From: an uncultured virus (IMG/VR IMGVR_UViG_3300042861_002315)
Lineage: Duplodnaviria; Heunggongvirae; Uroviricota; Caudoviricetes
Length of the DNA: 64,000 bases
IMG/VR virus record: IMGVR_UViG_3300042861_002315
Direction: 5' to 3' (one strand)
The notes under the pieces were generated by a model. It was not told the origin of the DNA. It saw nothing but the letters and a program-made list of their open reading frames with translations, and made no database searches. The translations under genes and the position numbers were made by a program. This document shows, piece by piece, positions 22,664 to 53,115 of this stretch (its first letter is position 1; each line of letters opens with the position of its first letter).

Positions 22664-23191
22664 TTACCCGTAAAGTAATTTTCCAACATAAGGTAGATAG
22701 CCTTGACGAATAGCAGACTTACCTTCGCGGAATGTATCTAGTTTGGCACGATAGTTGGCTCGGTTGTTCGCACTTTCACGGATTTTGTTTTTGGCTTCTA
22801 CTTCCTGTTGCCTGTGAATTGCTTCGTTAATTTGTTGGTCAGTCATTTCGGCTAGTTCATCGTCGGGAATGTCGTCGATGCTGTAGTATCGTTGGCGACC
22901 AGTTAAATTTAGGAACTCGGCTACTCGCTGGCGCTCGTTGGCAGAAAAAAGAAGTGAGGGCTTGTCTGAGCTGAAGTTAGCTAGGTTAGTGTTCATAAAT
23001 GCGAATGTCATGTTCTTGCCCATACCTGCTGAGATTACACCTTTGCGGCGCTTTACTACTGGTGCTGTGAAACCGCCACTTTTTTTGTTGGTTGCGCCCA
23101 TACGAGCTTGGGGCAAACGTTCACCGAACATCGGTTTCATTGCCCCTTGTTTCATCTTGGGTAGGTTTGGCGCTTTAAGCTGATTTTCCAT
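22664..23191 (-). CDS. Hypothetical protein with internal ANF/AEF motifs
   Basis: 175 aa containing MNTNLANF and QRVAEF. Confidence 0.6.
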   Translation of the reverse strand: MENQLKAPNLPKMKQGAMKPMFGERLPQARMGATNKKSGGFTAPVVKRRKGVISAGMGKNMTFAFMNTNLANFSSDKPSLLFSANERQRVAEFLNLTGRQRYYSIDDIPDDELAEMTDQQINEAIHRQQEVEAKNKIRESANNRANYRAKLDTFREGKSAIRQGYLPYVGKLLYG

Positions 23192-23724: not shown

Positions 23725-24954
23725 TTATGATAGCAGAGATTGTTTGCCTTGCTCTCTAGCTTTAACTGCATCTTCAAGAGTATCATGGCTACCAAAATGA
23801 AATCGTTGTTTACCGATAACAACAGATGCACGATACTTTTTACCGCGCTTTATTATTCCAATCGGCAAAGTTGAAGGTTGTTTTGGTTCTTTGTAAAATA
23901 AATGTGCAAAAGTTTGGTCATTTTCGTAGTAGTATTTTTCAGCTTTAATTCTATGTTCTCTTGCTTCCTCTTCAGTTGCAAATGTTTTCAATGTTTTAGT
24001 TCTACCATTTACCCGAATAGTAGCAGTGTAACCGCCCTTCTTGTTTTCTACTACGCCAACACCGCAAAAATTGTGCTTTTGCAAACTAGTTTTTCTCAAG
24101 GCAATCAATTCAGGCTCCAAAGATAAGTCTCCACCCCAATAGAATTTCTCTGCTAGGTTCCTGACTTTATTAGCAACATCTTCTAATTCGTACACACCCA
24201 GAGAAATATTTTTACCTCCTGAAGTAATTCTTACCCTGTAAAAACCTTCTGAATTGAGTGAAACACCTCCTCCTTTTTCATGTGCAGCGTCAGTCAAAGT
24301 CCTAGCTAACTTTTGCAATTCTTTTAGCTCAGCTTCGGCTGAAGCATTGCTATACCAATAGAACTCTTCTGCAAGATATTTTACTCTTCTGGCAACTTCC
24401 TCGTCTTTAAATGTACCTAAAGACATATTAGATTTAGTTTCTAACATCCTAATTAAAACTTGCCAAAAGCCTCCTTTAGTTTTATACACGTTAGAACCTC
24501 TAACACGTTTAGCTTCCGCCATTTCTTTTAATGATTCTTCTGAATGGGTTTTACCGTAAAAAGAATTAAGCTCCCCTAAAGAACTTTCAACTTTGAGTTT
24601 ACGTTTTTCGACTTCATCAGAATGTATTTTCCCAGCCGTTTTAGTGTAGCGAGTTTGATTGTAACTCATTCTCCAATTTGTAATAGCATCCAGATATTCT
24701 TGCTCCTTATCTAAAAGCCCATCTTTTGTTAATCCTGTGCAGTCCTCAAGCATTTCGATTTGAAAAACTGACTCTCCATGCAAATTATACACAGATTGTA
24801 AATGACAATTGTTGTGAGCGTTTCTAGATAATCTAGAGAAATGTTCCCTAAGTCTTGTGCGAATATTTTTGCTACTCCCGATATAGAAAAGTCTTGATTC
24901 AATATTAGAGATTTTATATATTCCTTGGACTCTAGGCACTGACTTAAAATTCAT
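23725..24954 (-). CDS. Free-standing GIY-YIG homing endonuclease with NUMOD3-like and AP2-like DNA-binding repeats
   Basis: GIYKI...FYIGSS.NIRTRLREH; NSFYGKTHSEESLKEM; repeated ...LGTF..EE.A...R..AE. Confidence 0.9.
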   Translation of the reverse strand: MNFKSVPRVQGIYKISNIESRLFYIGSSKNIRTRLREHFSRLSRNAHNNCHLQSVYNLHGESVFQIEMLEDCTGLTKDGLLDKEQEYLDAITNWRMSYNQTRYTKTAGKIHSDEVEKRKLKVESSLGELNSFYGKTHSEESLKEMAEAKRVRGSNVYKTKGGFWQVLIRMLETKSNMSLGTFKDEEVARRVKYLAEEFYWYSNASAEAELKELQKLARTLTDAAHEKGGGVSLNSEGFYRVRITSGGKNISLGVYELEDVANKVRNLAEKFYWGGDLSLEPELIALRKTSLQKHNFCGVGVVENKKGGYTATIRVNGRTKTLKTFATEEEAREHRIKAEKYYYENDQTFAHLFYKEPKQPSTLPIGIIKRGKKYRASVVIGKQRFHFGSHDTLEDAVKAREQGKQSLLS

Positions 24955-25109: not shown

Positions 25110-26345
25110 TTAGGAAATAACAGTTTGACCGCGAGAACTATCAAAAGTCAAAAAGTCTGCAAGAGAAATAGACGACGCAATATTCACATTTTTAGCGACC
25201 TTCCTAGCCATTCCGCATTTTGCAATGGTTGGGGCAGCTATGAGTTGCATCGAAACTGACTCGCTGATATCTAAAATTGGGGTCTTCTGCCATGTGCGCT
25301 GAAAAATCCCACTACGCTGATTGTTCTCAATAGTTCCACCCAAGATACGATTGTACTGACCTTGACGGCTCAAGAACACAACAGTACCTTCGTCTAACAA
25401 GCGAGTAGGAGCCGACTGACCATTTGCGTCTGAAAGCTCTACTTGTCCATCTTCTAGAACAAACTTAGGCAAGAAACGACGACTCATTACTTCGTTGATT
25501 TGGTCAATCGAAGGAGTACCAGTGATAACATTACCAAGAACGTTAGCAGCAACTACAGCTTCCTTCACAGACTTACAACGAGCGATGTTCAGGAGCAAGC
25601 GCTCAGAAATTGCAATTTCGTCAGCAGGGAAACCATTGGTGTACTTGTACTGAGTGTGCATATCTGCAAGGTCTTGCAGAGGGTCTGCTGTCTCATGTTG
25701 AGTCCAGTCTCTCTTCAGAGAATCAGCAGTCTCAGTCCCGTTAAAATCAGTTTGATAGATTGGGAAGGGGAAGTGGTTGGCGCGGATGCCGATTGCTTTT
25801 GTCCAGTCAAGGTCTGCTTTCAAACCTGTACGTTGGTCAGTGTACTGCATCTTACCAGTCTGCAATGTCTGCCAAGCCAAATAGTCAATCAAGTTGATAT
25901 GACCGCGAACAAGAGAGGCGAGAGTACCAAAGATATTCTTGGCAAGTTCGTTATCTTGACCCAACTGTACCTTACCTTCCGAAACTTGAATATTCTGAAT
26001 GGTAATGCCACGAATCTTAGCAAGTTCAGAAACTTCAGCCATACGCCATTGAGTGTCTTCATCCCAGTGATAAGCAATCGCAGCTTTGTAGTTACGAGCT
26101 TGAATTTTGGAGAAGTCGCCTTTTTTGGCTTCAGGGTAGTCCTGACCAGTTGCAACAAGAGATGCAATGGGGTCAACGGTTGTCGAGATGTAAGCAAGCC
26201 AGTCACGACCAGTCTTCTCGATTAGAGGAACGTAAGTATTGAGAACCTTGGAGCGTTCCTTCAACTGACGGAGAGTGTTGTTTACAACGAGGTCGGCAGC
26301 TTTAGCAGCGCGTCCTTCTTTTAAGAAATTTTCAATATATGCCAT
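25110..26345 (-). CDS. Major capsid protein (HK97 fold, lambda gpE-like)
   Basis: 411 aa; LAWQTLQTGK and ADPLQDLADM motifs typical of the major capsid E family; follows scaffold and decoration genes. Confidence 0.85.
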   Translation of the reverse strand: MAYIENFLKEGRAAKAADLVVNNTLRQLKERSKVLNTYVPLIEKTGRDWLAYISTTVDPIASLVATGQDYPEAKKGDFSKIQARNYKAAIAYHWDEDTQWRMAEVSELAKIRGITIQNIQVSEGKVQLGQDNELAKNIFGTLASLVRGHINLIDYLAWQTLQTGKMQYTDQRTGLKADLDWTKAIGIRANHFPFPIYQTDFNGTETADSLKRDWTQHETADPLQDLADMHTQYKYTNGFPADEIAISERLLLNIARCKSVKEAVVAANVLGNVITGTPSIDQINEVMSRRFLPKFVLEDGQVELSDANGQSAPTRLLDEGTVVFLSRQGQYNRILGGTIENNQRSGIFQRTWQKTPILDISESVSMQLIAAPTIAKCGMARKVAKNVNIASSISLADFLTFDSSRGQTVIS

Positions 26346-26362: not shown

Positions 26363-27271
26363 TTATTTGTTGAAGTATGGTTTAATGTGCAAGTGCAGAC
26401 CAAACAAACGCTTCAGTTGACGGTCAATGTAGGGCAAGTTATTTTGGTAAATACCTGCAATCTCAGAGATTACGGCAAAGTGACGGACAGGCTCACCAGT
26501 TAGGTCTACAGGGTCAGGATACAAACCAAGAACTTCTTCAACGTTAATACCAACAATAGAGTTGATAGGCAGAGCTTGAGCAGCGTTAGCAGCCAAAGTC
26601 ACCGAACGAACACCAGTGGTAGCATTTTCAGCACCGATTGCGAGAATCGTACCCAGAGGAGTGAGGTTATCGCCTAAGTAACCAGCTTCAGTAGTTTCGA
26701 CAACAACTTGACCAGCAGCACCAGAGGTAGTGAAGTACACATCATAGCTATCATTAGCGTAGATAGTAGCTACAGCAGTGGAACCAACTTGAGCGAAGGT
26801 AATACCAGCAGCCAACAGAGCAGCAGCGTTAGCGGTCGCAAAATCAGCAGCAGCGCCAGCACCAGTCTGAGTAGCACCTACAGTCGCAGAGTAAGTCACA
26901 CCGCCAATCTTGGCAGTAATAACATCACCAGTTGCAAAAGTACCAACAAACTTGATTCGAGCGAAACAATGCTTTGCGTACAGTACATCACCAACCTTGA
27001 ATTGAGAACAAGGAGTCTTCAATGAGATGGTGGGAGAGTTAGTAGCGGTCGCAGCGTTTAAGCGAGTGCGAGGGAGAAAACGGGCAACTCTTTCGCCAGA
27101 AGTGCCAGTAGTAGCGATAAATGAACCTTCAGGAGCCACTGCCTTACCTTCTGCATTGAGAAGAATATCAGCGCTCTTAATTTCAACACCATCAATTGCA
27201 ACTTTCTTAGCTGCGGCGTTGAAGATAATAGCTCTACCGTTGCGGGTAATTGTTTGAGTTGTTAAATACAT
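26363..27271 (-). CDS. Head decoration protein with inserted domain
   Basis: Directly upstream of capsid; GKAVAPEGSFIA and IYQNNLPY pattern; Ala/Thr rich. Confidence 0.7.
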   Translation of the reverse strand: MYLTTQTITRNGRAIIFNAAAKKVAIDGVEIKSADILLNAEGKAVAPEGSFIATTGTSGERVARFLPRTRLNAATATNSPTISLKTPCSQFKVGDVLYAKHCFARIKFVGTFATGDVITAKIGGVTYSATVGATQTGAGAAADFATANAAALLAAGITFAQVGSTAVATIYANDSYDVYFTTSGAAGQVVVETTEAGYLGDNLTPLGTILAIGAENATTGVRSVTLAANAAQALPINSIVGINVEEVLGLYPDPVDLTGEPVRHFAVISEIAGIYQNNLPYIDRQLKRLFGLHLHIKPYFNK

Positions 27272-27286: not shown

Positions 27287-28156
27287 TTATAGTCCGAAAT
27301 CCAGACCCATAGCAATCAAGTCGCCCTTAGCAGCTTCTTCAAGGCTAGATGAGAAATTAGCAGTTGCAACTTCTTCAGCGCTAACAGAGAAGTCGGTGAA
27401 CTGAGTCACATTGGCAACATTACGAAGCAAGCTGTAAGCAAACTCCGACATATTGAGTTGTTCTTGTAAGTCACGCGCACCATTGGTTTGAGCGATACCA
27501 GTAAATTGAGCTACTCGTTGGCGAGGGTCAGAGAAGTTACCGATAAGAGCTTCCTTCATTGCAGGGGTGATAATACCATCTACAACGTCTTGGCTAATAC
27601 GAGCGTTCAAGTCAGTCAAAGCTTGAGAAAGGTTAGCTTGGAACTGAGCTTGGGCAAAGTTAGCGTGTAGAGTTTCATTTTCTGCACGTACTCGTTGAAT
27701 TTCATCGGCAACTGCACGATTAAAGTTAGCTTGGATTGCGGGATTATATGCCGCAGCGTAATTAGCAGCTTCTTCAGTCATAGGGTCTTCTGCGCCTCCT
27801 TCAGCGCCTTCATTTTCGTATTGTGCTTCTAGAGCTTCGCGGTCAGCTTCTTCAACTCCGCTTGCAACTTCGATAATAGTTTGAATATCTTCGTCGTTAG
27901 CGTCAGGGAAAGCTCCAATCATTGCTTCGAGAATGTCAGCATCATCAACGATATTTTCACCGCTAATGTAGCCAGTTACGTCTTCTTCGCTCAAACCAGT
28001 AGCTTGAACGAGAGCCTGTACACCAGCATCAATGTCGCCTTCATATTGGGCTTCAATTAAGTCTAGAAGTAATTCGCCAAAAGCATTGGTAGGATTGAGT
28101 TCGGTCGCTCCTTCCATACCAGCGCCCTGAGCGCCTAAATCTTGTTCTTCATCCAT
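27287..28156 (-). CDS. Capsid scaffolding protein
   Basis: Acidic, helical, upstream of decoration/capsid; many A-x-F motifs. Confidence 0.7.
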   Translation of the reverse strand: MDEEQDLGAQGAGMEGATELNPTNAFGELLLDLIEAQYEGDIDAGVQALVQATGLSEEDVTGYISGENIVDDADILEAMIGAFPDANDEDIQTIIEVASGVEEADREALEAQYENEGAEGGAEDPMTEEAANYAAAYNPAIQANFNRAVADEIQRVRAENETLHANFAQAQFQANLSQALTDLNARISQDVVDGIITPAMKEALIGNFSDPRQRVAQFTGIAQTNGARDLQEQLNMSEFAYSLLRNVANVTQFTDFSVSAEEVATANFSSSLEEAAKGDLIAMGLDFGL

Positions 28157-28186
28157 TTTTATTATTTTCGTTTTTAGGATTACAAC

Positions 28187-28222
28187 AATAATGCCACACT
28201 AATTTCTCAGCATGGCATTATT
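28187..28222. terminator. Intergenic inverted repeat (terminator or processing hairpin)
   Basis: AATAATGCCA...TGGCATTATT perfect 10-bp arms. Confidence 0.5.
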
Positions 28223-28259
28223 TATGGCTTTTTCCCGTAACTGACGTAATGACTGACTA

Positions 28260-30491
28260 TTATTGAGTTTTATACTGCTCTTCTTCGAGGACTTTAGGTT
28301 TACGACTTGCTAACGCACCTAGAGCTAACAACCCACCTCCAGCGAGTAGCCCAGTACCAATAGCGGCGCGGTCAGCACCTTCGTTAGTATGTAAATAATC
28401 ACCAATACCTTGTAGTGAGTTTGCCTTAGCTACTTTAGCTTTTGCCCCTTGAGCGTTAGGCAGGATACTTAAAGCTCGGTTTAATAGCCCTCCAGCTACT
28501 CCACCTCTAGCATTACTGGCAGCATTTTTAAAAGTGTTACCAAGAGGGTCAGCAATGTATCTTCCTACTTGCGTCAGTAAGCTAGGAGCGCTAATTGCAT
28601 CACCAATTCTTCTTCCAATACCAAATTCAGCCTCAGACTTCAATCCACGTTGTTGAAATACAGCAGACTTACGAACCGACTTACTAAAATACTTGCCAGT
28701 AGGTTTGCCAGATTCAATCATTGAGTTGATTTCTTTAACTCCCATACTTGCAGGAACTTTAGGCTCTCTCAACTTCTTTTTCTGCACCTTACCGCGTAAG
28801 GTAGCTTCGAGGCTGACAACTCCAGTATTATCTTGAGGGATATATGTGCTACCTTTTTGGATTAGGCGTTGAATTGTAGCTGGGTCTTGGAAATTGGCTG
28901 ATTTTCTCATTGTTTTGTTGTATAGTCCTAGTTTACGACGAGTACCGACATACCCACGATACAAATCTCGCTGTAACTCTGGGTCTGCAATATCCCTATT
29001 TAAAAAATTGTAAGCTCTTTTTAATGGGCTTTCTTGCTTTACCTTTCGGTTTGCAATGTAAGACTCCCATTTATCATTGTTTGCAGCATCTATATCATCG
29101 ATAGAGACGGTAGGTTTTTGATTTACTTCTGAATTTACGGTTGCAGTTTTTGGTTCTTTTAAAGATTCAGCTTGTTTAAGTGCTTCTTCTGCATCTTTAG
29201 ACAACTTTGCACCATTGACGGAAGTATTACTGTTGATTCCCTTGAACCTATTATACCCGTACCCAGCCGCAGCACCTAGTCCACCACCAATTGCAGTCTT
29301 ACCTACAATCTTTCCAAGGCGACCGCCAATGTCCGTATTCTCACGCTCTCTATCTGACTCGCCAATCCCAAGCCCAGAAGCTAAACCAAGCCCAGCACCG
29401 ATTTTAGCGCCAAGATTGACGTTAGGATGTAGATTTAAGTTAGGTAATGCAAAGCTAGCACTCTTTCTAATTTGTTTGTTCATATTTGTAGTTATAGGTT
29501 GTGCTTGTGGTTGTGGTCGGTCGCCAAATAGATGACCAGCAGTTCTACTACCCACGTATCCGATGCCAGCACCAATACCAGCACGAATAGCAGAAGACTT
29601 TAACATACTACCAGCGCGACCAAGTTTGGAGTTAAGGGAGTCGTAATCGCGTAGTCTGTTGGCACGTTCTTCAGGGTCAGAAATATATTCAATTTCTTTT
29701 CTACCCTCCCAATATTTCTTGTCTGCATCTTGATATCCAGACAAAGCACCAGCAGCAGCACCTGTTTTAGCCAGCAAGCCGTGAATAGGATTAGCAAAAT
29801 CTGCTCGACTAAATCCAGAGGTAGTTAAACCCTCTCTACCTATAGAGGATAAATTATTTGGCGCTCTAGATAGGGCTAAAGACTTATAGTAATCTAAATC
29901 TTCTCTAGAATTATGCAAAGACTCTAGCAAACCGTAAGTACCAACACCGACACCAGCAGATACACCTCCAATTGCAAGACCTTTTTTGAAATCTCTTTTT
30001 TGGGATGGAGTCAACTTTTCCCAGTCTTCTTTCGAGATACCAAAATTTGCCTTACTGTAATTACTTAGGTATCCGCCAATAAACTCTTCTTTGGCAGCGT
30101 CCCCCAATGAAGGGCTATATTTTTGTGCGACATCAGCGCCACGATTCAACAAACCCTTGCTAATACCATAACCAGCAGCAGCCCCTAAGCCTCCGAGAGC
30201 AACTTTACCACCAACATCTCCTGCGTTACGTTTTGCTTCTAGTTGCCAGCGCCTATCATCATAATCACGACGAAGTTTTGTAAGTGTGGCAGTTCTTTCT
30301 GTTGGGTCTTGAATAGCCGAAGCTTCTCGAATATTATTTTGGTAATCTAAATCTGTGGACATACCATCATATTTAGCGTCACGGTCAAGTTTACGCTTAA
30401 GAAGACCTTCCCCAGCTTTCACTGTAAGATAACCTCCCCCAATAGCTCCACCTGCGCCTAAAGCGTCTTCAAAAGCGTTAAAGTTAGCCAC
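28260..30491 (-). CDS. Modular glycine-zipper polyprotein punctuated by A-x-F motifs (743 aa); putative internal head protein
   Basis: MANF, KANF, RADF, KSASF, KSANF, KSAVF and EAEF separate segments, most with Gly/Ala-rich hydrophobic helices. Confidence 0.65.
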   Translation of the reverse strand: MANFNAFEDALGAGGAIGGGYLTVKAGEGLLKRKLDRDAKYDGMSTDLDYQNNIREASAIQDPTERTATLTKLRRDYDDRRWQLEAKRNAGDVGGKVALGGLGAAAGYGISKGLLNRGADVAQKYSPSLGDAAKEEFIGGYLSNYSKANFGISKEDWEKLTPSQKRDFKKGLAIGGVSAGVGVGTYGLLESLHNSREDLDYYKSLALSRAPNNLSSIGREGLTTSGFSRADFANPIHGLLAKTGAAAGALSGYQDADKKYWEGRKEIEYISDPEERANRLRDYDSLNSKLGRAGSMLKSSAIRAGIGAGIGYVGSRTAGHLFGDRPQPQAQPITTNMNKQIRKSASFALPNLNLHPNVNLGAKIGAGLGLASGLGIGESDRERENTDIGGRLGKIVGKTAIGGGLGAAAGYGYNRFKGINSNTSVNGAKLSKDAEEALKQAESLKEPKTATVNSEVNQKPTVSIDDIDAANNDKWESYIANRKVKQESPLKRAYNFLNRDIADPELQRDLYRGYVGTRRKLGLYNKTMRKSANFQDPATIQRLIQKGSTYIPQDNTGVVSLEATLRGKVQKKKLREPKVPASMGVKEINSMIESGKPTGKYFSKSVRKSAVFQQRGLKSEAEFGIGRRIGDAISAPSLLTQVGRYIADPLGNTFKNAASNARGGVAGGLLNRALSILPNAQGAKAKVAKANSLQGIGDYLHTNEGADRAAIGTGLLAGGGLLALGALASRKPKVLEEEQYKTQ

Positions 30492-31117
30492 TAATTACCA
30501 CCACCAAACCATCTACTAGGGTTAAGACCTAAATCATTTGCGACCTGAGAAGCTTCTGAGGGACTAGGATTGTAGCCGCCGAACACTTCAGGTACTCTTC
30601 CATTAGCCACCTTATCATAGGCAAGTTTCTTAGCTAAAGCTTTTGCATTAAGCTCCTCAGAAGTCAATCCTTTTGTAATCCCACTTCCAAAAGTATCGTA
30701 AGGTTTAACATAGTCATCGGGCTTTAAGAATGCTTTACGAATGGAAGAGCCAGCAGCACCGTAACGTTCATTAGCTGAGCCTAATGCAGACTCAGGAGAT
30801 ACATAGCCTCTTTTTAGTTTTTCTAGCCCTGCACCTAGAGTGAGATTTTTTAATCGAGAAGCTGACTCAGGAATATCAGATAAAACTCCACGTTCACCAT
30901 TTTCATTCAACAACGCATCATACCCAACCTTACCGCCTAAACCCACAGCAGCCGCACCACCCAAAGCTAAGCTAGGTCTAACGCCTCTGCGTCTAGGTCT
31001 TTGTTCTTGTGTGGCTTCCTCTTCTTGTTGCTGCAAAGCAAATTGTGCAATAGCTCTGTTGTAAGAACGTACAAATTGAGCATAGGTAGAGTTGTGATTG
31101 CGATAATATTTAGTCAT
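30491..31117 (-). CDS. A-x-F leader protein with glycine-rich helix (208 aa)
   Basis: STYAQF and AIAQF near N-terminus; LALGGAAAVGLGG. Confidence 0.6.
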   Translation of the reverse strand: MTKYYRNHNSTYAQFVRSYNRAIAQFALQQQEEEATQEQRPRRRGVRPSLALGGAAAVGLGGKVGYDALLNENGERGVLSDIPESASRLKNLTLGAGLEKLKRGYVSPESALGSANERYGAAGSSIRKAFLKPDDYVKPYDTFGSGITKGLTSEELNAKALAKKLAYDKVANGRVPEVFGGYNPSPSEASQVANDLGLNPSRWFGGGN

Positions 31118-31137
31118 GTTTTTATTTTTAGTATACC

Positions 31138-32703
31138 TTACTTGTTGTCGAAGTTAACTTTCTTGAGTCCAATACCCAAGGCTGATTTATAATCTCCGTT
31201 GAGGGCAGAATCAACTAACTGGGCGCGAGAAGTGTCGTCAATTAATTGTCCCCTCGCTTTAGAGAGCAAACCAGCACGTAATTCGGGGTCTTGAATGCGG
31301 TCAAGAGCAGCTAACTTTTCTGCTTCTAGTATCTCATCTTTTTTCTTCGCTTCTTTTTTTCTGCGATATAGTCCATATCCTGCTCCTGCGATACTAATAG
31401 CTGGAACAATTAAAGGCAGAAAGAAATCGGCAGTTTGTTTAGATTTAGGTTTTGAATATACCGCTTGAGTGCGATAATTAGTCCATTTAGGTTTTTTACG
31501 TTCTATTTCTTCTTCTTCTTTATTATGGGGTGCTGGTGCAATTAAAGGATGAGCCAAAGTATCAGGAACAATATTAGAAAGTCCCAAAGCTGTAGGTACA
31601 TTGCTAATCACATTATCAACATTGTATTGGGCGCTATTGTAGTAATCTAAGGCTGCTGCTCTGTCTTCTTTGTCCTTGATTTTGTTTATTCTAAGTGCAT
31701 CCTCGTTACGTTTCTTATTAAGTCCCGACAGCAAACCATACCCACCAACAGCAACGGCAGCACCTTTTTTCCAATCAACTCCTTGAGGCTTTGGACGACC
31801 GAATATAAACTCAGCTTGCTTAACAGATGCATTGAAGTGATTGTAACCTAGTCGTGGTTGTAGTTCTTTCTCGCCTACTTGACCTAAGAAAGCCTTTTGT
31901 TTTTTTTGCTCGAAGTCAAATTTTCGCTCTTCCAAATCAAGGCGATTCTTTTCTGCTTGCTGTGCTTGTAAACTATCTGGGTCAATACCTCTTTGTTCTC
32001 TGATTAGATTACGTCTGGCAATTATTTCCGCTACTTTGTCACGATAACCCTGAGCTTGTTCTTGTTTTTCTTGCTCAGCTTCCTTATTTTTGTTGTTTTG
32101 ATATATGGCAGCTCCTGCGGCAATGGGAGCTAAAGTTAGTCCAGCAAGTGTTCCACGTATCTCATTCTTACTCATGTCTCTGCCAATCAAAGCATTAGCT
32201 GCTGGTTGGATGACTTTACTTCTGATTGTATTTCCTATAGTCTCTATTGCAGGCGTTACATAAGGAATACGGAAACCTTGAGGTGTTTCGTCTGTGATAC
32301 CGTAATGGTCTTTTAACGCTTGCTTCTCATCTGCTGCTACTCTGTTTTTCTTAGCTGTTACTCTTTCACCTTGAGCATTACCAATCTCGGAGGGTGTTGG
32401 AGGTGGATTTGGTGGGTCAAGTTCTCTTGCCCGTTTTTTAACTGCATCTTTAATTTCTACTTTATTTAAAGCTTCTTGTAGAGCAGTAGGTACAGGTGTT
32501 TTTACAGGTACAGTTGTTCCAGTGGCAGGTTTTACAACTGCCTTAGCTCTTGTACCTCCAGCTTTCTTAGCATTATAATTAAGCCTTTTACTTCTTATCG
32601 GTACACTACCAGTTCCTGAGGGAGGAGGAGGAGCAATCAAAGGCACACCTAAAGTTTTTATTCTAGGTTTTCTTAAGGCAAATTCTGCTTTTAAACTTAG
32701 CAT
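31138..32703 (-). CDS. Modular A-x-F polyprotein (521 aa)
   Basis: LKAEF, KQAEF and QTADF each precede a module with a hydrophobic helix. Confidence 0.6.
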   Translation of the reverse strand: MLSLKAEFALRKPRIKTLGVPLIAPPPPSGTGSVPIRSKRLNYNAKKAGGTRAKAVVKPATGTTVPVKTPVPTALQEALNKVEIKDAVKKRARELDPPNPPPTPSEIGNAQGERVTAKKNRVAADEKQALKDHYGITDETPQGFRIPYVTPAIETIGNTIRSKVIQPAANALIGRDMSKNEIRGTLAGLTLAPIAAGAAIYQNNKNKEAEQEKQEQAQGYRDKVAEIIARRNLIREQRGIDPDSLQAQQAEKNRLDLEERKFDFEQKKQKAFLGQVGEKELQPRLGYNHFNASVKQAEFIFGRPKPQGVDWKKGAAVAVGGYGLLSGLNKKRNEDALRINKIKDKEDRAAALDYYNSAQYNVDNVISNVPTALGLSNIVPDTLAHPLIAPAPHNKEEEEIERKKPKWTNYRTQAVYSKPKSKQTADFFLPLIVPAISIAGAGYGLYRRKKEAKKKDEILEAEKLAALDRIQDPELRAGLLSKARGQLIDDTSRAQLVDSALNGDYKSALGIGLKKVNFDNK

Positions 32704-33722
32704 TTAGCTGCACTTCCTCGTACATACTTCTTGGTTGTACCAATTGACAAGTTGAATTGAGCCAACTTATTATTGCCACGCTTATAGGTGGTTTGTTGCT
32801 GTAGCTGTGGAATTGTCATACCACTTTCAGCCCCTCCTTGTAGTTGTGCCTGAGTCTGCGTCGCTTGGTCTTGAGGAGTCATTGCACCAGCTTGTGCTTG
32901 TTGATTCATCTGCTGCATCAACTGAGTCAGACCGAGTAGTTCGATAATTTTGACGCTGAACCCATTCAACTGAGAGTAAATCAGTTGCAACAAAACCTCA
33001 GGGCTATCAATATTAATCGCATCGTTATCATAGGCATTCTTTAGTAGAAGCCACAGTTTCTGGCAAATTTCGTTGTATTCGTCTTGAAGGTCATCGATTG
33101 CTTGGTCATTAGCATCAAGCTCGTCCCAAGTCACCGCGTTGCCACTATCGGGAATACCTGAGAAATTAGCGGTCATTGCTTTGCTCACTTTCTTATGAAA
33201 CAAGCCCATGTTAGGGATAGCAGGAATAGGTACAAGAGACAATTCCATAATTCGGTGTTCATTAGGGTCGAGGTTAAGCCCCATAGATACTGATTTGACA
33301 CCTGACTTAAGTGCTTCGACTCCTTTCGCTGCTGCAACTTTAACTCCTGATAAAAACATCCCAAGCTTTCCTACGAGGTGCTTGCTATTTGGATTAGGTA
33401 AATCTGCTTCGGTGATAACTTTAGTGAAAGCTCTTCCATTAATGCTTCCAATGGTATTTGGAATATCTTTCTTGTGGTCAGCGCAAACAGGTACAACTGT
33501 GCCGCTATCGATGGCTCGGTTAGTATGCTCGACAATTGTATTTAGGCGCTCAGCACTAAATTCATGTTCGATATCAGTACTGTCGGTAAACTTACCTTCA
33601 GTGGCTACAAGGGCAGTATACTCTTCCTTGAGTGGTGTACCAGCTACCAACACCTGCCCCAACTCAAAGTTGGCTGATGCTGGAGCTTTAAAATATGCGA
33701 TGTTGGTCTTTTTCATTGTCAA
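32697..33722 (-). CDS. Prohead (maturation) protease, Mu gpI-like
   Basis: PVCADH, VKSVSMG and ELSLVPIPAIPNM match the His/Ser motif order of Mu-I/HK97-type proteases. Confidence 0.8.
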   Translation of the reverse strand: MTMKKTNIAYFKAPASANFELGQVLVAGTPLKEEYTALVATEGKFTDSTDIEHEFSAERLNTIVEHTNRAIDSGTVVPVCADHKKDIPNTIGSINGRAFTKVITEADLPNPNSKHLVGKLGMFLSGVKVAAAKGVEALKSGVKSVSMGLNLDPNEHRIMELSLVPIPAIPNMGLFHKKVSKAMTANFSGIPDSGNAVTWDELDANDQAIDDLQDEYNEICQKLWLLLKNAYDNDAINIDSPEVLLQLIYSQLNGFSVKIIELLGLTQLMQQMNQQAQAGAMTPQDQATQTQAQLQGGAESGMTIPQLQQQTTYKRGNNKLAQFNLSIGTTKKYVRGSAAKC

Positions 33723-33755: not shown

Positions 33756-34508
33756 CTAGATACCAAAAGCTGCCTTGGCTCGGACTAGGTAAGCCCATCG
33801 GTCAGCCTCACCATTCCTGCCGCCATTTATAGTAAGCATGATTCTGTCAAAGTTGTCTTGGTCAGCAAGAGCATTCAAATTTCGAGAAGACCAAAACCAC
33901 CCTGCACTACTACAAGCCAGTTCAGGTTCGGCAACTAGTTCAGGATAAGATTCGAGGTCGTAAATTTTAAGGTACTGGCTAAACTCGCGGTAGTTGGCTC
34001 TACCAGTTAATTGAATGAGTCCACGACCCTTGAACTTTCTGCCATCCCCTTCATACACATTCCCCAAATCTTCGCGCCATTCATAGTTTGCTCCGCTTGC
34101 ATACTCTTCAGTCGTATTAAAGCCGTCACTTTCATGAGCTACTTGAGCTAAGAAATGACAAATGCGTAAAGGGGTATTGATTTCGTATTTGTGGAGTGTC
34201 TGGTTAAGGGAATTGATTAAGTTATCAAGCTTACTGTAGTCAGCGTAAATTGCAATCGAATAAAGCTGTTCTTTTGTTAATAGTTCAGGAACTTCTTTGA
34301 AATCAGGTACACTTGCATGACCTTTCCACAAATAGATGAATTGATTAGGGACAACTTCTAGCTTATAGTGGTCATCTACTAGAGAGCAAGAAAGTAAATC
34401 ATAAATTTCTTGCCCTTTATTCAATCTCAACTTTTCGTCATCGGGCAAATCTGTAGATTGTGCTGTGCTAAGTTTTGCCCAAGTTGTGTTGGTAATAATT
34501 GCTTTCAT
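33756..34508 (-). CDS. Endolysin, glycoside hydrolase family 19
   Basis: HFLAQVAHES, FKGRGLIQLTGRANY, SAGWFW, INGGRNG. Confidence 0.93.
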   Translation of the reverse strand: MKAIITNTTWAKLSTAQSTDLPDDEKLRLNKGQEIYDLLSCSLVDDHYKLEVVPNQFIYLWKGHASVPDFKEVPELLTKEQLYSIAIYADYSKLDNLINSLNQTLHKYEINTPLRICHFLAQVAHESDGFNTTEEYASGANYEWREDLGNVYEGDGRKFKGRGLIQLTGRANYREFSQYLKIYDLESYPELVAEPELACSSAGWFWSSRNLNALADQDNFDRIMLTINGGRNGEADRWAYLVRAKAAFGI

Positions 34509-34513
34509 AATAA

Positions 34514-34882
34514 TTACTTCAACTTCAGTAGATTTAAAGGGGCTTTCAATACAGACTCAACTTTTGCCACTGTATCGTCAGCCGTACTAGCAATTTCAGT
34601 AATTTCTTTTACAGGAGCCAACACAGTAGATTGCTCTGTGTCTTCAGGGTTGCGTCCAAGAGGGAACCATTTTGGAGTATATACATTCTTTTCTTTATCT
34701 ACCTTGTCTGCGGCAACACCAATCGCACCAAAAAATGTGATAACTAAATTGAAGTACTTCTCGAACGTGCCACCATTTTTAGAGATATCTACAATACTTG
34801 GCTGTGCAGCACTTAACACCACAATAATTAGCGATATAAATGTGTTAGAAGAGAATAAATTTGCAGGTTTTTGCTCAACCAT
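34514..34882 (-). CDS. Putative holin/membrane protein
   Basis: Two hydrophobic segments, adjacent to endolysin. Confidence 0.5.
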   Translation of the reverse strand: MVEQKPANLFSSNTFISLIIVVLSAAQPSIVDISKNGGTFEKYFNLVITFFGAIGVAADKVDKEKNVYTPKWFPLGRNPEDTEQSTVLAPVKEITEIASTADDTVAKVESVLKAPLNLLKLK

Positions 34883-34922: not shown

Positions 34923-35165
34923 ATGAACGACAAATCACTCTTCAATCAGCAAGTAGGGGAAAAACTCCGCAGTCTACGCAAGGCTAAGAATAAGTCTCAG
35001 GCTAGTGTTGGGGCTGATTTTTCATTCAGTCAGGATGTTGTTAGTGAGATTGAACGTGGCAAAAGAGCTTTGGATGCATTTGAATTGGCAAGTTTTAGTA
35101 CTTACTATGAGAAGCCTATCACTTTCTTTTATATGAACTCTCCACTACCCCCTAAAAATTCTTAA
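34923..35165 (+). CDS. XRE-family HTH regulator
   Basis: GEKLRSLRKAKNKSQASVG...SQDVVSEIERGKR. Confidence 0.88.
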   Translation: MNDKSLFNQQVGEKLRSLRKAKNKSQASVGADFSFSQDVVSEIERGKRALDAFELASFSTYYEKPITFFYMNSPLPPKNS

Positions 35166-35751
35166 AATGCTTAAACGAATTGGACATTGTAGCTAGTTTA
35201 GGTCTACGTAATTTGGAAATAGCATCACCAATTTTAGGCACAACCCCTTTAACTGCCTGTACACCCATTTTTGGCGCATCATAAAAATAGAACTTAGGTC
35301 TTGTGACAACTTGAGCTTTAGCAGTTTGTAGGGCAGCTTTTCCTGATTCGCGTAATACTTCTTTTGGAGTCAATTTTCTTCCAAGTTCTTTCTGCTTATC
35401 ATAAACTCCTCGAACATTTCGATAAGTTGCTGACATTCCATCTGCAATAGGATTCCCCCAGCCTTCACTATCACGCAATACTTGACCGCCAGTTTCAAGT
35501 GCTGCTTTAGCAACACGCTGAGGCAATTTATCCCCTGCATTAGCTTTATAAGTCTCTTTAGCTGTTTTTGCCCACTTAGGGAAATTAGGGGCGTTCATAG
35601 CTATAGGCAGCGCACTCATATCACCAAAACTAGGGTGATAACTATATACTGCATTTCGAGCTGCATCAAAAGCTGAAGGAATATCTACGTGTTGAAGAGC
35701 TTGAAGTCCCTCAAATATAAATTCAGCTCGTTGTTGCGGTTTGGAGGTCAT
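35152..35751 (-). CDS. A-x-F leader protein (199 aa)
   Basis: Starts MTSKPQQRAEFIF, ends SFKHFKNF. Confidence 0.6.
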   Translation of the reverse strand: MTSKPQQRAEFIFEGLQALQHVDIPSAFDAARNAVYSYHPSFGDMSALPIAMNAPNFPKWAKTAKETYKANAGDKLPQRVAKAALETGGQVLRDSEGWGNPIADGMSATYRNVRGVYDKQKELGRKLTPKEVLRESGKAALQTAKAQVVTRPKFYFYDAPKMGVQAVKGVVPKIGDAISKLRRPKLATMSNSFKHFKNF

Positions 35752-35859: not shown

Positions 35860-37446
35860 CTAAGCGCGATTGATGATTTGGACACTTTTAGCTACCTTAT
35901 TTACTATATTTTTTTCTGCCCCAACAAAGTTGAGTGCCTCTAGCCCTGATTCTACTATGCGCGGTAAATTGGTCGGGTCTGGTACAGGTAGTCTAGGTGT
36001 TGTGAATGTCGAGTAGATGGCTTTTGCTGTTGCATTACCTAGTGACTTGTTAGATGAGAGTAATGCAAGCCCAGCAACAAATGCAGTTGCTGCGAGTGCA
36101 ATCTTAATTGGTGTACCTAAGCCGCCTTGAGGTGGTCGATTTGGAGGTTGTTTTTTGGGGTCAAAATCTTCTTCATCAACGTCTTCCGATAACGACCAAA
36201 AACATTGGCACATCGGATGTAGGGGCATAATAGGTCTAGCTGAATTGCGCCAGACAGTAGGGTTTCCAGCTTTATAGTTAATAACATCTCCGCTACTTCT
36301 TTGGTTTTCAATTATTTCAAATAAGTAGTATTCAAGACCATCTTGAAGTTCACAGTCTTCACATGGAACAGGGTCAGTTCTCTTACTTCCACTCGCTAAT
36401 CTTTTGTAGCGACTAATCAGTGCATATTCTCTGTCAACATTCCATCTGAATCGCTTGTATCTATCTGCCTTACCTCCAAACGCCGCCACCTTACCGAAAT
36501 TGTAAGCGATGTTCAATTCAGTCTTTACAATCACATCAGGTGACTGCTGCTTAAATGCGCCTTGTAGTCCAGCTTCATCCTTGTTGATGATATTCCTGAT
36601 GCGTACTTTGAGAAGGTTGAGGTCGTATTCGTACTTATTACGTTGAGACTTGATATTAGTAATGTATTCTCGATTGTCTGCTAAAAATAATGCAATAGCC
36701 TTACGAATTTGTTTGTTACTTTCGGTTGAGTAGGATGCTTGCAATACTCGACGACGCTTGCCAAGGTAATTACTCGATATGAAATTTTGTTTTTCATCAC
36801 TGCTACCATACAAAAAGTTCATCATGGCAGCTTTACCTGCGTTGGTGCTGTCACTAATTTTATTGAGCATATAGACGTTGCGCGACACTTCATCAGCTAT
36901 TTTGACTCGCTCTTGTATCTTGGCGACATCGTTGATATTGGTTTGCTCAGCACGTTGTTTCAGCAAATTCTCGACTGCCCTTTTAGTTAATTTATATCTA
37001 GCCTTATTTTTATTTTCTTCTTGGTAACTCGCAAACTCTGCTGATAGTTCTTTGGTGTCTTCTGTAATAACTGCACTATCAAAGTACTTGCGGATATCAT
37101 CGTCTCCGTACTCGTACAAATAGTCGTACATTTGGTGTCTAAGCGCCAACTTAATCATTGACTCAAAATTGGTAGTTAATACCTTGTTGAACTCGACTTG
37201 CACTTTGGCAAAGTATTTGGCAGTGATGTCACTTACATTCTTTTCTGCAAACTTGTCAAAAATAGTATCTGGTACTTCATAGATACTGGCATTCGATTTG
37301 GCAATCCACTTAGCCAATTCATCCACAAAAGTATTCTTGGCGAAGTCACTGTTAATAGCTCTGCGAACTCCTAAAATAGATTCAGCCAACGCTTTAAAAT
37401 ATTCTTGAGTCTTGAACTCTTTGAAGCTATTAGACTGTTTTCGCAT
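35860..37446 (-). CDS. Minor head protein, Mu gpF/SPP1 gp7-like
   Basis: IVKTELNIAYN...PCEDC...MPLHPMCQC signature. Confidence 0.75.
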   Translation of the reverse strand: MRKQSNSFKEFKTQEYFKALAESILGVRRAINSDFAKNTFVDELAKWIAKSNASIYEVPDTIFDKFAEKNVSDITAKYFAKVQVEFNKVLTTNFESMIKLALRHQMYDYLYEYGDDDIRKYFDSAVITEDTKELSAEFASYQEENKNKARYKLTKRAVENLLKQRAEQTNINDVAKIQERVKIADEVSRNVYMLNKISDSTNAGKAAMMNFLYGSSDEKQNFISSNYLGKRRRVLQASYSTESNKQIRKAIALFLADNREYITNIKSQRNKYEYDLNLLKVRIRNIINKDEAGLQGAFKQQSPDVIVKTELNIAYNFGKVAAFGGKADRYKRFRWNVDREYALISRYKRLASGSKRTDPVPCEDCELQDGLEYYLFEIIENQRSSGDVINYKAGNPTVWRNSARPIMPLHPMCQCFWSLSEDVDEEDFDPKKQPPNRPPQGGLGTPIKIALAATAFVAGLALLSSNKSLGNATAKAIYSTFTTPRLPVPDPTNLPRIVESGLEALNFVGAEKNIVNKVAKSVQIINRA

Positions 37447-37484: not shown

Positions 37485-38042
37485 ATGACACAACTTACAC
37501 CCGAACCTTACGTCGATACCGTAAGAAAGCAGAAAGAGAAAGACCTTATCAATGTCACTAAAAAGACGCGCAAACACATTCCAGCTTACGTTTTTCAAGC
37601 TCATGCTAATTTACTCGAACGCTTCCCAGATACAGGAAGTTTCTTGACCCCAGCATTCGTCTACCAAACCCTCCGCGAAATTACCAAAGCTATTGAGGCT
37701 CAACTGTGTGCTGACGAGACTGCCTCTATCGATATTTTTGGTTTGGGCAAATTTGTGCTACTTCGCAAAAAAGCTTATAGAAGCGAAGACAAAACAAGAG
37801 AGCAACTTTACCTCAAGTTTAGGCATTCTCAGGTATTCCTATATAAACTGAGACGGCATCATGGTACAGCGACCGCAGCCGAACTTAAGACACTGGAGAA
37901 ATCCGACAACTACATGAAGGAATTACAAGCCAAACGCGAGAAGTTTTTGCGCGAACGGGAGATGAAGCGGAAGGGTGAACTCGACGAACTTGACCCAAGT
38001 AATTATCTAAGTCAATTTTCAGGTATTCTTGAGTTAAATTAA
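37485..38042 (+). CDS. HU/IHF-like DNA-binding protein with extensions
   Basis: IEAQL...IDIFGLGKFVL...LKFRHS resembles the HU core. Confidence 0.6.
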   Translation: MTQLTPEPYVDTVRKQKEKDLINVTKKTRKHIPAYVFQAHANLLERFPDTGSFLTPAFVYQTLREITKAIEAQLCADETASIDIFGLGKFVLLRKKAYRSEDKTREQLYLKFRHSQVFLYKLRRHHGTATAAELKTLEKSDNYMKELQAKREKFLREREMKRKGELDELDPSNYLSQFSGILELN

Positions 38043-39052: not shown

Positions 39053-42000
39053 ACTGCATAAGCACTACTAGGAGGCACAAAACTTGCCCCATTGTAAAGC
39101 GAAATCCTCCTATACACCACAAACGAATCTAAATTGATGTTCAAGCCACTTGTAGTTATTGCAGTGGCTTGTCCTATTTGTGCATCAGTGTTCCAATCAC
39201 GATACTCATAATCATCAGTAGCTTCATACACTCTAACTCCACCAACATACAGTCTCATCGTTCCATTCTGTTTCGTCAGGGCGATGTGATTGAACGCAGT
39301 CGAGGATAGCGGCAAAGCGACAGAAAAGAGAGCAAGTCCAAACACTAATGAACGACCTAGATACAATCGGTCGGCAGAAAAGAACATGGCTAATCCCTGC
39401 TGGCTATATATGTTGACTACTTCGCCATTGGTAGCTCGGTCAGTCAGTAACCAACCTGCAATAGTGAAATCACTTGACAGAAAAGAATAGTCTGAGTCAT
39501 TTGGTATTTGCACATAAGCTGGCACACTGTTCTTGGCGATAGGGAAGCTGGCGGCTCCGAACTTCTTGGTCACAGTGTCAAGTACCGAAATGTTGCTACT
39601 CAAGGTCTTGGCGCGATAGCTTTGGTCAACGATGCTACTATCGAAATTCAACAACGTAACTATCTTGGCTGGCTGGTAGTAGTCACGAATGCTTCGCTCG
39701 ATGGCAGAAAAAGAAGTTGGACTTATCTTGTAGTCTACAATACAAAACATAGCTACACTACCTTTCACGCTCCTGTCCTCGAACACCCTGTCCTTGGCAA
39801 TTGAATTGATGGTAACTAGGTCAGTGGAGTTGAAAATGACCACACTGAGCGATTCTTCAGGTAGTACATAATCACGCTCTCTTTCTGCACCGTTCGCCCA
39901 AACGTCCCCGTAGAAGTCATTCGCTAGTAGTTCTCCATTGTTTCCAGAATTGAAAATGTTATTGCTATTCTGACCAAACAAGAAAGCTGCTCCAGTTTGC
40001 CCTGATTTGCGAATGTAAGCTATGACAAAGCAGTAACCACTACTACTGCTAGGAGTGCCAAAGTCGAGGTGTGAGGAGCCATCTATGTTGAATCGAGCCG
40101 CAGGTAGTCCGTCGGTCTGGATTGGGGTGATATAGTTTACTGCATTCACTCCGAGAAGTTCCTGACCATTGGTGCGATACTCATCAAGTTGAAGTATGTT
40201 GCCCCCTGATAGTGTTACGGTTTCAGGAGTCACGATGAAGAATGAACTGAAGGTATTAAGCAGTCCTTTCAAGTTGATGTAAAGCTGATTAGTAAGTAAA
40301 GTGATGCTGACGCTAAAACTAAAAGTGACAGACTCTGTAGCTGTGTAGGCTCGGATGGTAAAACTGATAAAGTCGTCGGTTGGGCAAGTGAAAATGAGGT
40401 CGTTACCAACAACAGTCGCTGAATAGTGATTAACTAGTATCTCGTAGCTAACTGCATTACCCGCAATCTCAGTAACCTTTTTGTTAAGGTTAACAATAAC
40501 GTCTGATGCATACCTAAACTCAGTTGCAGTGCTAAACAGTATTAAAGTTGAATCAAAAAATTTCTCGGCAAGAAGGTGCGTAGCAATATTAAGCTCACTA
40601 TCAGATAGGGCTTCCGACCACCCGATAAAGTACAATAACTCCCCTTTTAGTTGTGAAGTGAACCCACTAAAAGATATAGACGAAGCATTGTTAGTTGCTG
40701 TAATGATTGCCCCATACTCAGTTGGCAATCGGTAATTGAAAGCATTAACCCCAACTTTATTTACTCTTGTGTTGAGTTGCGTAATTGCAGTTGTGCCAAA
40801 AATTTCTTCGCTGTTAGATGTTGTCCACAAAACTCCATTGGCAAATATATCTGGAAAGCCATTAGCCATAAATCGCTCTCCAATCTGTTTTTGCTTATAC
40901 ACCCAAATGAAAGTCTTGCAAGAGACTGAAGTACCTAAAAGTGTTCGAGGTAGGGAGCTATTAGTAATGAAAGACAACTTTGTTCCATCATAAGTTATCT
41001 GATTGACGTTATCTACAGTGCTGCCTACATACAAAGGCTTATCGGGTAAGCGACGACTATCTTCCCACTTGGTTATATTACCTACATTATCGGTATAAGC
41101 CCCATAAGGAATGTCATCTTCGTCTCTAAGCGTAGACAAAGATACGCTTATGTTAGGTTGCTGAGGGAACTCTAGTACAAAAGGGTCAGGTCTAACTGCT
41201 TCTAATGCAAAGCTGAATGTAGATACCATGCTATTGCTGTTAGTGATAGTTATGGTAATCTCTCCTTCAAATACTTCTGGCACATATCCCGACAAAACTG
41301 AATCTGTAAAACTTAGCCCAATTCCGCTTGGTGCGACATAAGTGTACGCAGTAATATCAAAAAATTCATCGACTGCAATAGTTGCGAAATCGAAACTAAA
41401 AAATTGCCCGACAAATACTCTGAAAACAGGTTGCGAGGAAAGAACTACTCCGTTATAGTTAACGTAAATTTCGGCTAACTTCGCCTCTACCGCAGCAAGG
41501 ATATCTAAGGGACAAGGTGAAGCTGATGTAATAATAGCCGCAATCTTACCTTGGATACTCTTCCCCCCATCTCTATGACTTCCTCCAAAACCGCTTATAC
41601 TCTCGCTTTGGTTGCTATTTGATATGTCAGTTACACTAAGAACTCTTGGACTACCCAGAGGGACAAAAGTAGTAGGAGATACAAGGCGGCTGTTGATGCG
41701 TGATGTAGCGTCATAGACAGAATTATTTGCTAAAGGCTCTTGCGCCCACAGACCAGAACCGCCCGAAGGGAAAGCATCATAGAAAACGGGAGGATTATTT
41801 CCCATTTGTCGAGGAGCAAACACCAAGTAACTGCCAGAAACTCTTGTTAAGTAGACAATAATAATAGTACCTACTTGAACGGGTCTATAAAAAAGCAACT
41901 TTTGAGTCCCTGCATCAGAAAACTCTATACTGGGTCGATTGTTAAATTGGCTGTCACTTGGTATTAACGTGGGGGCTGCACCCGAAGCTTGCAAAAAATT

Positions 42001-52918: not shown

Positions 52919-52937
52919 CTACAATCATTACTTTTTT

Positions 52938-53115
52938 AAACTATGTAAACATTGTAGCATACCTAAAACTATGTAAGGTATTTTTCGATTTACAAAGATA
53001 AGGTTGGATTCGCTTATTTATCCTTGTAGGCAAATTGCTGTATCTTTGTAAGTGGTTATTTTGATTTTAAGTGCTAAGGGCTTATTTTGGCATCTATCTT
53101 TGTAATTACATAGTT
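52938..53115. repeat. Cluster of direct and inverted 10-11 bp repeats
   Basis: AACTATGTAA at 52939 and 52967, inverted at 53106. TATCTTTGTAA at 53041 and 53095, inverted at 52990, degenerate at 53019. Confidence 0.7.

Follow-up and report, generated by a model that had tools for sequence, protein, structure and literature searches.

A short A-x-F tag shared by the putative prohead protease, putative scaffold and candidate head cargo of a siphophage related to Pam2 and PA-SR01

The window analysed here is the whole of a 64,000-nucleotide stretch from an uncultured tailed virus of the Caudoviricetes (IMG/VR IMGVR_UViG_3300042861_002315). Its head region encodes a short motif, A-[N/D/E/Q/S/V/H]-F, hereafter the A-x-F tag, which recurs in a putative prohead protease, a putative scaffold and a series of basic proteins. 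The closest phage records to the window are the Pseudanabaena siphophages Pam2 and PA-SR01, described in the accessible text of their reports as long-tailed, with genomes of 137-143 kb (PMC9382816, PMC10286775). The protease of 341 amino acids (aa) is 91.5% identical to hypothetical proteins of PA-SR01 and Pam2, its sole two matches among 50,697 phage records, and the capsid protein is 78% identical to theirs. The PA-SR01 record annotates the protease as a Mu-like I protein; the other tagged genes of Pam2 and PA-SR01 are hypothetical proteins. Pam2, PA-SR01 and seven IMG/VR contigs served as stand-ins for the window phage in whole-genome comparisons. On the minus strand the gene order runs from the protease through unannotated genes of 521, 208 and 743 aa to a 289-aa acidic gene, a 302-aa gene and the major capsid gene. 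The five proteins from protease to scaffold (2102 aa), referred to as the block, are as follows, with the tags read from the sequence.

32697-33722, minus strand: prohead protease, 341 aa, assigned from phrog_976, invariant residues and fold-model matches; tags at 33666-33674, 33162-33170 and 32754-32762
31138-32703, minus strand: candidate cargo polyprotein, 521 aa, isoelectric point (pI) 9.8, three modules, Pam2 homologue gp15 in virions; tags preceding the modules at 32680-32688, 31807-31815 and 31423-31431
30491-31117, minus strand: candidate cargo protein, 208 aa, pI 9.5, one Gly-rich segment, no Pam2 homologue; basic leader with two tags at 31073-31081 and 31040-31048
28260-30491, minus strand: candidate cargo polyprotein, 743 aa, pI 9.7, six modules of 78-187 aa, Pam2 homologue gp17 in virions; tags bounding the modules at 30480-30488, 30042-30050, 29796-29804, 29451-29459, 28890-28898, 28656-28664 and 28623-28631
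27287-28156, minus strand: putative scaffold, 289 aa, pI 4.1, all-helical model, assigned from position, charge, model and conservation; tags at 27722-27730, 27656-27664, 27641-27649, 27503-27511 and 27353-27361

The earlier note on this DNA had read these sites as a Phe-directed signal for packaging and cutting many cargo proteins, and had placed them around the protease catalytic domain, in the scaffold and in eight unannotated genes. Every site and count that it quoted is present when codons and coordinates are checked. The protease sites lie on both sides of the catalytic domain, PASANF/ELG at residues 17-19, AMTANF/SG at 185-187 and KLAQF at 321-323, and an additional A-Y-F absent from its list occupies residues 9-11. 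The scaffold has 5 sites and the 743-, 521- and 208-aa proteins have 7, 3 and 2; outside the block, proteins of 199, 175, 333, 196 and 201 aa have 1, 2, 2, 1 and 2. The excess over background that the note anticipated was found: 20 A-[NDEQSVH]-F occur in the block against a mean of 2.5 in 1000 within-protein shuffles, none of which reached 20 (maximum 9). A.F ranks first of 1600 gapped pairs in the block (21 vs 6.7 shuffled), and ANF is its top tripeptide (8 vs 0.41). The window's remaining open reading frames (ORFs; 16858 aa) contain 29 sites vs 21.2 shuffled, a number reached by 53 of 1000 shuffles, so the signal is local to the block. The block count is partly circular, because the set of middle residues was picked on these same proteins; the Pam2, protease-homologue and scaffold-homologue tests are free of this circularity.

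At 29 sites the codons for Ala and Phe show synonymous variation, and no family of DNA repeats covering the sites was found in the window, which places the signal in the protein; a DNA-repeat origin was rejected on these grounds. The core of the tag is A-[N/D/E]-F. It is often doubled, as M/F-x-H-F-x-[N/D]-F, or placed after a linker of the form Y/F-S/N-K-x-x-R-K-S, and internal copies often retain the Met of a former start. Where the tag varies the Phe stays and the Ala is swapped for Ser, Val, Leu, Gly, Thr or Tyr, and the residues following the Phe are unconstrained. The tag is kept in the protease and scaffold homologues of related phages, down to 26-48% identity. As a conserved protein-level signal of head assembly, common to protease, scaffold and cargo as the note supposed, it is almost certainly real.

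The protease is a weak match to the head maturation proteases of phrog_976 (E 4e-4); a Pfam scan of it returned nothing, and a PDB sequence search with its profile gave chance matches only. Five residues, H83, S146, G148, E160 and S162, are invariant in 65 of 65 aligned sequences (26-95% identity). His83 and Ser146 are presumably catalytic, a role taken from the family pattern and not from structural superposition. The protein consists of a catalytic domain (about 33-176) and an acidic helical domain (about 199-295). In the predicted model 33-176 is folded confidently and 1-29, 178-192 and most of 296-333 are disordered. A structure search of 48161 chains gave only two matches with Z of at least 8, the varicella-zoster virus protease (Z 9.7, root-mean-square deviation 3.3, 119 aligned residues) and T4 gp21 (Z 9.1, 3.7, 118). 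The modelled protein has the T4 gp21/herpes-assemblin fold, which, together with the invariant His and Ser and the phrog_976 match, supports the identification as a prohead protease made in the earlier note.

All three listed protease tags fall outside the folded domain, in segments with a predicted local distance difference test score below 50, which fits the self-trimming of T4 gp21 and SPN3US gp245. Phe19 and Phe323, the final residues of the first and last tags, are at least 90% conserved in the 65-sequence alignment. The profile search yielded 247 cluster representatives at E<=0.001, 150 of them listed; the catalytic core could be located in 65 of 69 near and 125 of 143 distant homologues, and the rest were excluded. 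In the leaders preceding this core A.F is the top of 400 gapped pairs, with 81 vs 15.9 in the near set and 73 vs 17.1 in the distant set, whereas in the core itself the motif is at or below shuffle level (16 vs 22 and 31 vs 42). L/I.E, the pair expected of a T4-type site, is absent from the top 10-12 gapped pairs in both the block and the protease leaders. In addition, of 76 distant homologues of at least 370 aa, 65 were examinable, and a basic tail, frequently Gly-rich, is fused to 53 of them. In 31 of these 53 the switch from acidic to basic sequence has an A-x-F ending no more than 6 residues away (random mean 4.3, maximum 11), and 24 of the 31 are A-E-F. Among the 22 misses, 18 have an A-x-F 8-53 residues away and four have none.

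The 289-aa protein has no family match in Pfam or PHROG scans. It is probably the scaffold, being acidic, all-helical in the model and encoded before the head genes, and its Pam2 homologue gp18 is undetected in virions. Its homologues contain 152 motifs in total vs 37 shuffled, and Phe145, Phe218 and Phe268 are conserved in 34 of 34 (36-48% identity).

The proteins encoded between protease and scaffold vary among genomes. In 12 close relatives, a set that includes the window and some near-duplicates, this interval holds 3-5 genes whose content differs between genomes, and cutting their products at the motif yields recurring units. One 78-aa module is found in 12 of 12, in three different polyproteins, and always starts right after a tag. 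A tag is found no more than 15 residues from 28 of 61 internal homology ends (random mean 11), comprising 16 of 40 starts (p 0.001) and 12 of 21 ends. For the 743-aa protein, 19 homologues from the database contain 77 module starts, of which 74 come after an A-x-F, two lie at the start Met and one comes after V-N-F. Module 151-232 of this protein is present in only four of the 19, and its loss joins the flanking tags. As judged from these sequences, each large protein is a chain of modules, and it is at the motif that modules have been acquired, dropped or joined anew, in agreement with the note's placing of the tag at domain boundaries. An SNF2 ATPase behaves in the same way: one genome has it as a stand-alone gene whose product begins with an M-K-H-F-A-D-F leader, in PA-SR01 the same tag links it to the end of another module, and in three relatives it is inserted, tagged and reversed, within the cargo interval (L002 25081-26877; L017 14273-15685). 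In three distant phages, whose proteases are 47-50% identical, the interval is occupied by 4-6 different Gly-rich genes, and in most of these the leader ends in [A/S]-x-F; a fourth distant phage encodes a kinase-like module at this place. On a 126-kb contig filed under a Chroococcidiopsis metagenome-assembled genome (MAG) there is a related head module that includes a kinase-like cargo gene (L077 9884-13172), and some homologues carry names from a Microcystis MAG; hosts beyond Pseudanabaena, or mis-binned phage contigs, are thus possible.

Across six whole genomes, M-x-H-F-x-x-F leaders are found on the products of 32 genes, which belong to 13 families unrelated to one another. F-x-H-F-x-[N/D]-F also occurs at the C-terminus, in 8 of 8 members of the 199-aa family (sequences found by that pattern) and in the Pam2 gp46 family in four genomes. 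One tagged family outside the window, that of Pam2 gp37 (L001 37932-38654, L060 9709-10650, L065 3217-3990), shows an H-T-H-P...S-x-x-D pattern recalling JAB/MPN domains and a weak DUF4329 match (E 0.02). Tagged DUF5754 proteins are encoded in one close and one distant relative (L002 4111-4476 and L023 1706-2890). Just upstream of Pam2 gp189 (L004 ~40740-40800) is a short out-of-frame remnant opening with a tag, perhaps the relic of a deleted cargo gene. The tagged cargo candidates of the window outside the block are the following.

35152-35751, minus strand: basic protein, 199 aa, A-E-F leader at 35719-35727, no Pam2 homologue
22664-23191, minus strand: basic protein, 175 aa, internal tags at 22973-22981 and 22913-22921, Pam2 gp22 in virions
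49820-50821, minus strand: 333-aa fusion of a RIO1/APH-like kinase (residues 1-198), tags and a Gly-rich module, Pam2 gp189 in virions
6047-6637, minus strand: basic protein, 196 aa, starting M-Q-H-F-A-N-F, Pam2 gp41, gp42 and gp44 in virions
6812-7417, minus strand: basic protein, 201 aa, starting M-Q-H-F-A-H-F, closest to Pam2 gp39 (31% identity), which is in virions

The window cargo proteins have pI 9.5-10.1. Pfam returned nothing for them, PHROG nothing for the 743- and 521-aa proteins, and the ESM Atlas matched the 743-aa protein only to hypothetical viral clusters below 0.9, none above 0.83. This protein has four Gly-rich segments of only moderate hydrophobicity (19-residue means 1.0-1.8); a membrane role for such segments is possible. 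The 199-aa protein ends in F-K-H-F-K-N-F-stop (35152-35172, minus strand), a C-terminal tag that the note had missed and that is kept in 7 homologues. The 333-aa protein carries an internal M-Q-H-F-A-N-F (A-N-F at 50228-50236) and a second tag at 50204-50212. The 201-aa protein has a second tag seven residues on from its first, and its ATG is codon 41 of a 241-codon ORF. The note had treated the eight unannotated proteins as one family; they do share the tag, but they are largely unrelated proteins or strings of modules. Nor is the 333-aa protein featureless: it has no Pfam or PHROG match of its own, but residues 1-198 look like a RIO1/APH-type kinase, with an ESM Atlas score of 0.96 to RIO1-family clusters.

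The tag could be compared with the virion proteins of Pam2, for which Table S2 of the partly accessible report (PMC9382816) marks 27 of 191 ORFs as detected by mass spectrometry of particles purified on caesium chloride (CsCl). The motif applied was that of the earlier note, defined on another genome. It is carried by 18 of the 27 detected proteins and by 31 of the 164 undetected ones (Fisher 1.3e-6; p 0.0006 in a length-stratified permutation). Counted as sites, the detected set has 34 vs 11.9 in shuffled sequences and the undetected set 42 vs 37.8. The motif lies in the first 20 residues of 9 of 27 detected vs 3 of 164 undetected proteins, and 7 of 8 Pam2 genes with an N-terminal tag are detected. 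Six of the eight genes named in the note have a Pam2 homologue, and all six are found in virions, in line with the association it had proposed. The Pam2 scaffold and protease are undetected. Detected proteins skew basic (15 of 26 vs 10 of 109); among those with pI>8 and at least 60 aa (n=46) the motif is in 14 of 25 detected vs 2 of 21 undetected (p 0.001). A 185-aa basic protein of the window (37485-38042, plus strand) has a homologue, Pam2 gp9, that is in virions without any tag, the lone strongly basic exception. In the accessible text on PA-SR01 (PMC10286775), gel bands of 16, 28, 47 and 99 kDa are assigned by size alone, so that cut and uncut cargo are indistinguishable. The Pam2 homologue of the window protein at 44443-46290 (minus strand) is labelled botulinum neurotoxin on weak similarity; the label looks spurious, because the window protein matches only PHROGs of unknown function or tail fibres and no Pfam family.

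Taken together, these data suggest a T4-like head-loading and maturation system in a long-tailed freshwater cyanophage, to which we assign a probability of about 0.6. Every step beyond the presence of the tag and of the homologues in virions is what we infer. Proteins tagged with x-x-F would be built into the prohead along with the protease and the acidic scaffold, and the protease would then cut after the tag Phe. Cutting would trim the leader and tail of the protease itself, fragment the scaffold so that its pieces leave the head, take off leaders of 4-30 residues, and break up the polyproteins, giving individual basic modules of about 80-290 aa. These modules would stay with the DNA and probably be ejected into the host. 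That the cargo resides inside the head is highly probable; that this protease cuts at the motif is likely, and that the cut falls after Phe is favoured somewhat less strongly.

A number of observations weigh against this picture. Table S2 entries are a plus or a blank, giving presence only, and the accessible main text of the Pam2 report makes no mention of trypsin or liquid chromatography-mass spectrometry. Tagged Pam2 gp16 and gp37 are undetected in virions. The motif travels with basic charge: it is present in 17 of 22 basic Pam2 proteins of 100-350 aa vs 13 of 88 others. In the narrowest set (pI>9, at least 100 aa, n=25) it is carried by 13 of 20 detected vs 2 of 5 undetected proteins (p 0.30), and among strongly basic Pam2 proteins a weight matrix trained on the protease-homologue sites fails to tell detected from undetected ones (p 0.53). 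The homologues share ancestry and counts over them are not independent. The charge-switch test requires the switch to be at an acidic residue and so leans to A-E-F. Foldseek ranks 1-10 for the protease are all herpesvirus proteases with middling scores (E 0.05-0.14). Scaffold sites 167 and 172 align in 3 of 34 homologues each, with a nearby site in most homologues shown; the model puts sites 167, 172, 218 and 268 within helices, which speaks against ready cleavage; and four more scaffold Phe are equally invariant, so that some of these Phe may be structural. In contrast to the giant phages, an N-terminal tag is missing from the major capsid protein, in which no motif precedes residue 396, and the core motif is missing from the portal. 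Finally, a cut after the last Phe of a C-terminal tag removes nothing, which suggests a binding role besides or instead of cutting.

Encapsulin loading peptides dock cargo in a way comparable to such a role. The best surviving alternative, unlikely as a whole, is that x-x-F is purely an address that docks on the scaffold core or the inner capsid face, repeats raising avidity and no cutting occurring there; joints would fall on tags since each module was once a tagged gene, as the retained Met of internal copies suggests. The C-terminal tags of two families and the helical scaffold sites favour this. So does the T4 leader, in which, in the accessible text, positions 4 and 7 serve targeting and 8 and 10 processing (PMC9026906), and both Phe of M-Q-H-F-A-N-F fall at 4 and 7. 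SPN3US gp53 and gp54 open with M-A-N-F yet are cut at A-x-E in the accessible account (PMC5694885), a further point against cutting at the tag. On the other hand, tags on both flanks of the catalytic domain and at the joint between protease and basic tail make most sense if the joint is cut, and tagged scaffold is missing from virions while tagged cargo remains. The small-x-P1 format also matches SPN3US A-x-E and T4 L/I-x-E, and the C-terminal tags are tandem x-x-F units that a cut at the first Phe could release. From the C-terminal tags, the T4 leader positions and the SPN3US M-A-N-F, the tag is read as an address label that probably also ends in a cut site.

Herpesvirus assemblins cut after Ala, and Prp-type cysteine proteases cut after Phe in staphylococcal phages. 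A cut in the motif at another bond, after Ala, or by another enzyme, of the Prp type, is improbable. It would suit the herpesvirus proteases found as best structural matches and the Y/F-S-K-x linkers before the Ala, and Q-H-F-A presumably resembles a Prp site. Against it, Phe is kept where Ala varies and the residues after Phe are free, and a Prp match (PF04327) was found in 0 of 5 related phage genomes, in a search where controls passed the cut-off in only 3 of 14 cases and which left the host genome aside. That the tag is no head-assembly signal at all, a by-product of DNA repeats or composition in basic proteins that co-purify with phage DNA, is very improbable: basic proteins are over-represented among those detected and the motif adds nothing in the narrowest basic set, but the codons at the sites vary synonymously with no shared DNA repeat family, the particles were CsCl-purified, and the tag is conserved at low identity in protease and scaffold, both of which are acidic.

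The remaining head genes adjoin the block.

26363-27271, minus strand: virion protein, 302 aa, Pam2 gp19 detected in virions
25110-26345, minus strand: major capsid protein, 411 aa, phrog_29 (E 4e-19)

The capsid protein has an A-D-F at 25152-25160 (minus strand), 13 residues before its C-terminus. A-[D/E]-F is kept in 14 of 16 capsid sequences and D-F in the other two, 2-13 residues before the C-terminus in most relatives; it may be a trimming site or a docking site. In the accessible PA-SR01 report a band of about 47 kDa compares with 46.4 kDa predicted for the capsid protein (PMC10286775). The 302-aa protein is, from its position, probably a head decoration protein. Its A-D-F is probably not a tag, the site being missing in three distant relatives. 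Downstream of the capsid gene is a 409-aa GIY-YIG-like endonuclease gene (23725-24954, minus strand), which varies among relatives and whose family is named from the visible pattern. Directly before the protease are a GH19 endolysin gene and a 122-aa holin-like gene (33756-34882, minus strand), both missing in some relatives. A 528-aa gene (35860-37446, minus strand), with no Pfam or PHROG match, has Cys-x-x-Cys and His-Pro-x-Cys-x-Cys patterns, and its homologue Pam2 gp10 is undetected in virions. We take these patterns to recall head morphogenesis proteins of the Mu gpF type.

A TATA[A/C]T-like element is found upstream of several tagged and structural genes. A shared late promoter is not established, sigma-70-like sites being at shuffle level (24 vs 24.3). 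Two long stretches, 1-4400 and 52920-54650, have no ORF above 120 aa and no notable repeat, and tRNA and Rfam scans of the window, these stretches included, gave no match.

The kinase, ATPase and JAB-like cargo may, by analogy with T4 IPI/Alt and P1 DarB, point to host takeover or counter-defence. A bolder proposal, which we hold tentatively and at slightly less than even odds, is that a clade of cyanobacterial siphophages produces the proteins it injects in the form of polyproteins, each cut inside the head into 5-6 small proteins by a prohead protease specific for Phe. One short tag would then be address label, cut site and recombination joint. If true, new effectors (kinase, SNF2 ATPase, JAB-like domains, Gly-rich membrane-active helices) could be plugged in or dropped as units, and the polyprotein processing would be much like that of RNA viruses. 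The model gives a site-by-site prediction of capsid maturation for an uncharacterised head protease family, and, for cultured phages that infect bloom-forming cyanobacteria, points in each genome to a dozen hypothetical proteins as candidate injected effectors. Enzymes of CBASS (anti-phage signalling based on cyclic oligonucleotides) are reported, in the accessible part of one account, to sense prohead-protease cuts in a sequence-dependent manner (PMC12991175); protease specificity is thus relevant to immunity. In the full-text literature, with subscription journals mostly outside the search, no report was found of the A-x-F motif, of head processing in Pam2 or PA-SR01, of a Phe-directed prohead protease or of head-packaged polyproteins. 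The proposed Phe specificity is probably new, as is the proposed polyprotein cargo.

Among known systems, Pam2 and PA-SR01 have the same head module and tag; the accessible text of their publications mentions neither the motif nor processing. The Dar proteins of phage P1 and the polyvalent proteins resemble the tagged cargo as head-packaged effectors with SNF2 ATPase cargo and, on DarB, an N-terminal packaging signal (PMC9024508, PMC5512222). As far as these partly accessible sources go, the Dar proteins differ in having no consensus leader, and polyvalent proteins (Iyer et al. 2017) are said to be processed by a metallopeptidase domain that they carry themselves; Pfam and PHROG scans found no metallopeptidase domain in the window cargo. 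Fusions with kinase and SNF2 domains are seen among the tagged proteins; neither Pfam nor PHROG matched the 743- or the 521-aa protein.

The systems of SPN3US (gp245, A-x-E) and phiKZ (gp175) share, in the accessible parts of their descriptions (PMC10052503, PMC5694885, PMC7411985), Ala at P3, self-trimming, several sites per propeptide and many unannotated head proteins. They differ in having Glu at P1 and in processing capsid and portal, and their cuts remove propeptides and are not described as freeing several modules from one chain. T4 has the same protease fold (gp21, Z 9.1). In its partly accessible literature (PMC9026906, PMC3012670) one short motif likewise occurs in protease gp21, scaffold gp22 and the small basic internal proteins IPI-III/Alt, and its unrelated, rapidly evolving cargo proteins bear short leaders. 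The T4 cut follows the Glu of L/I-x-E, whereas the window motif is A-x-F, and the window phage is a siphophage with a lambda-E-like capsid protein that lacks an N-terminal tag. The T4 cargo consists of single proteins with one leader each, whereas here much of the cargo is polyprotein and some of the tags are C-terminal.

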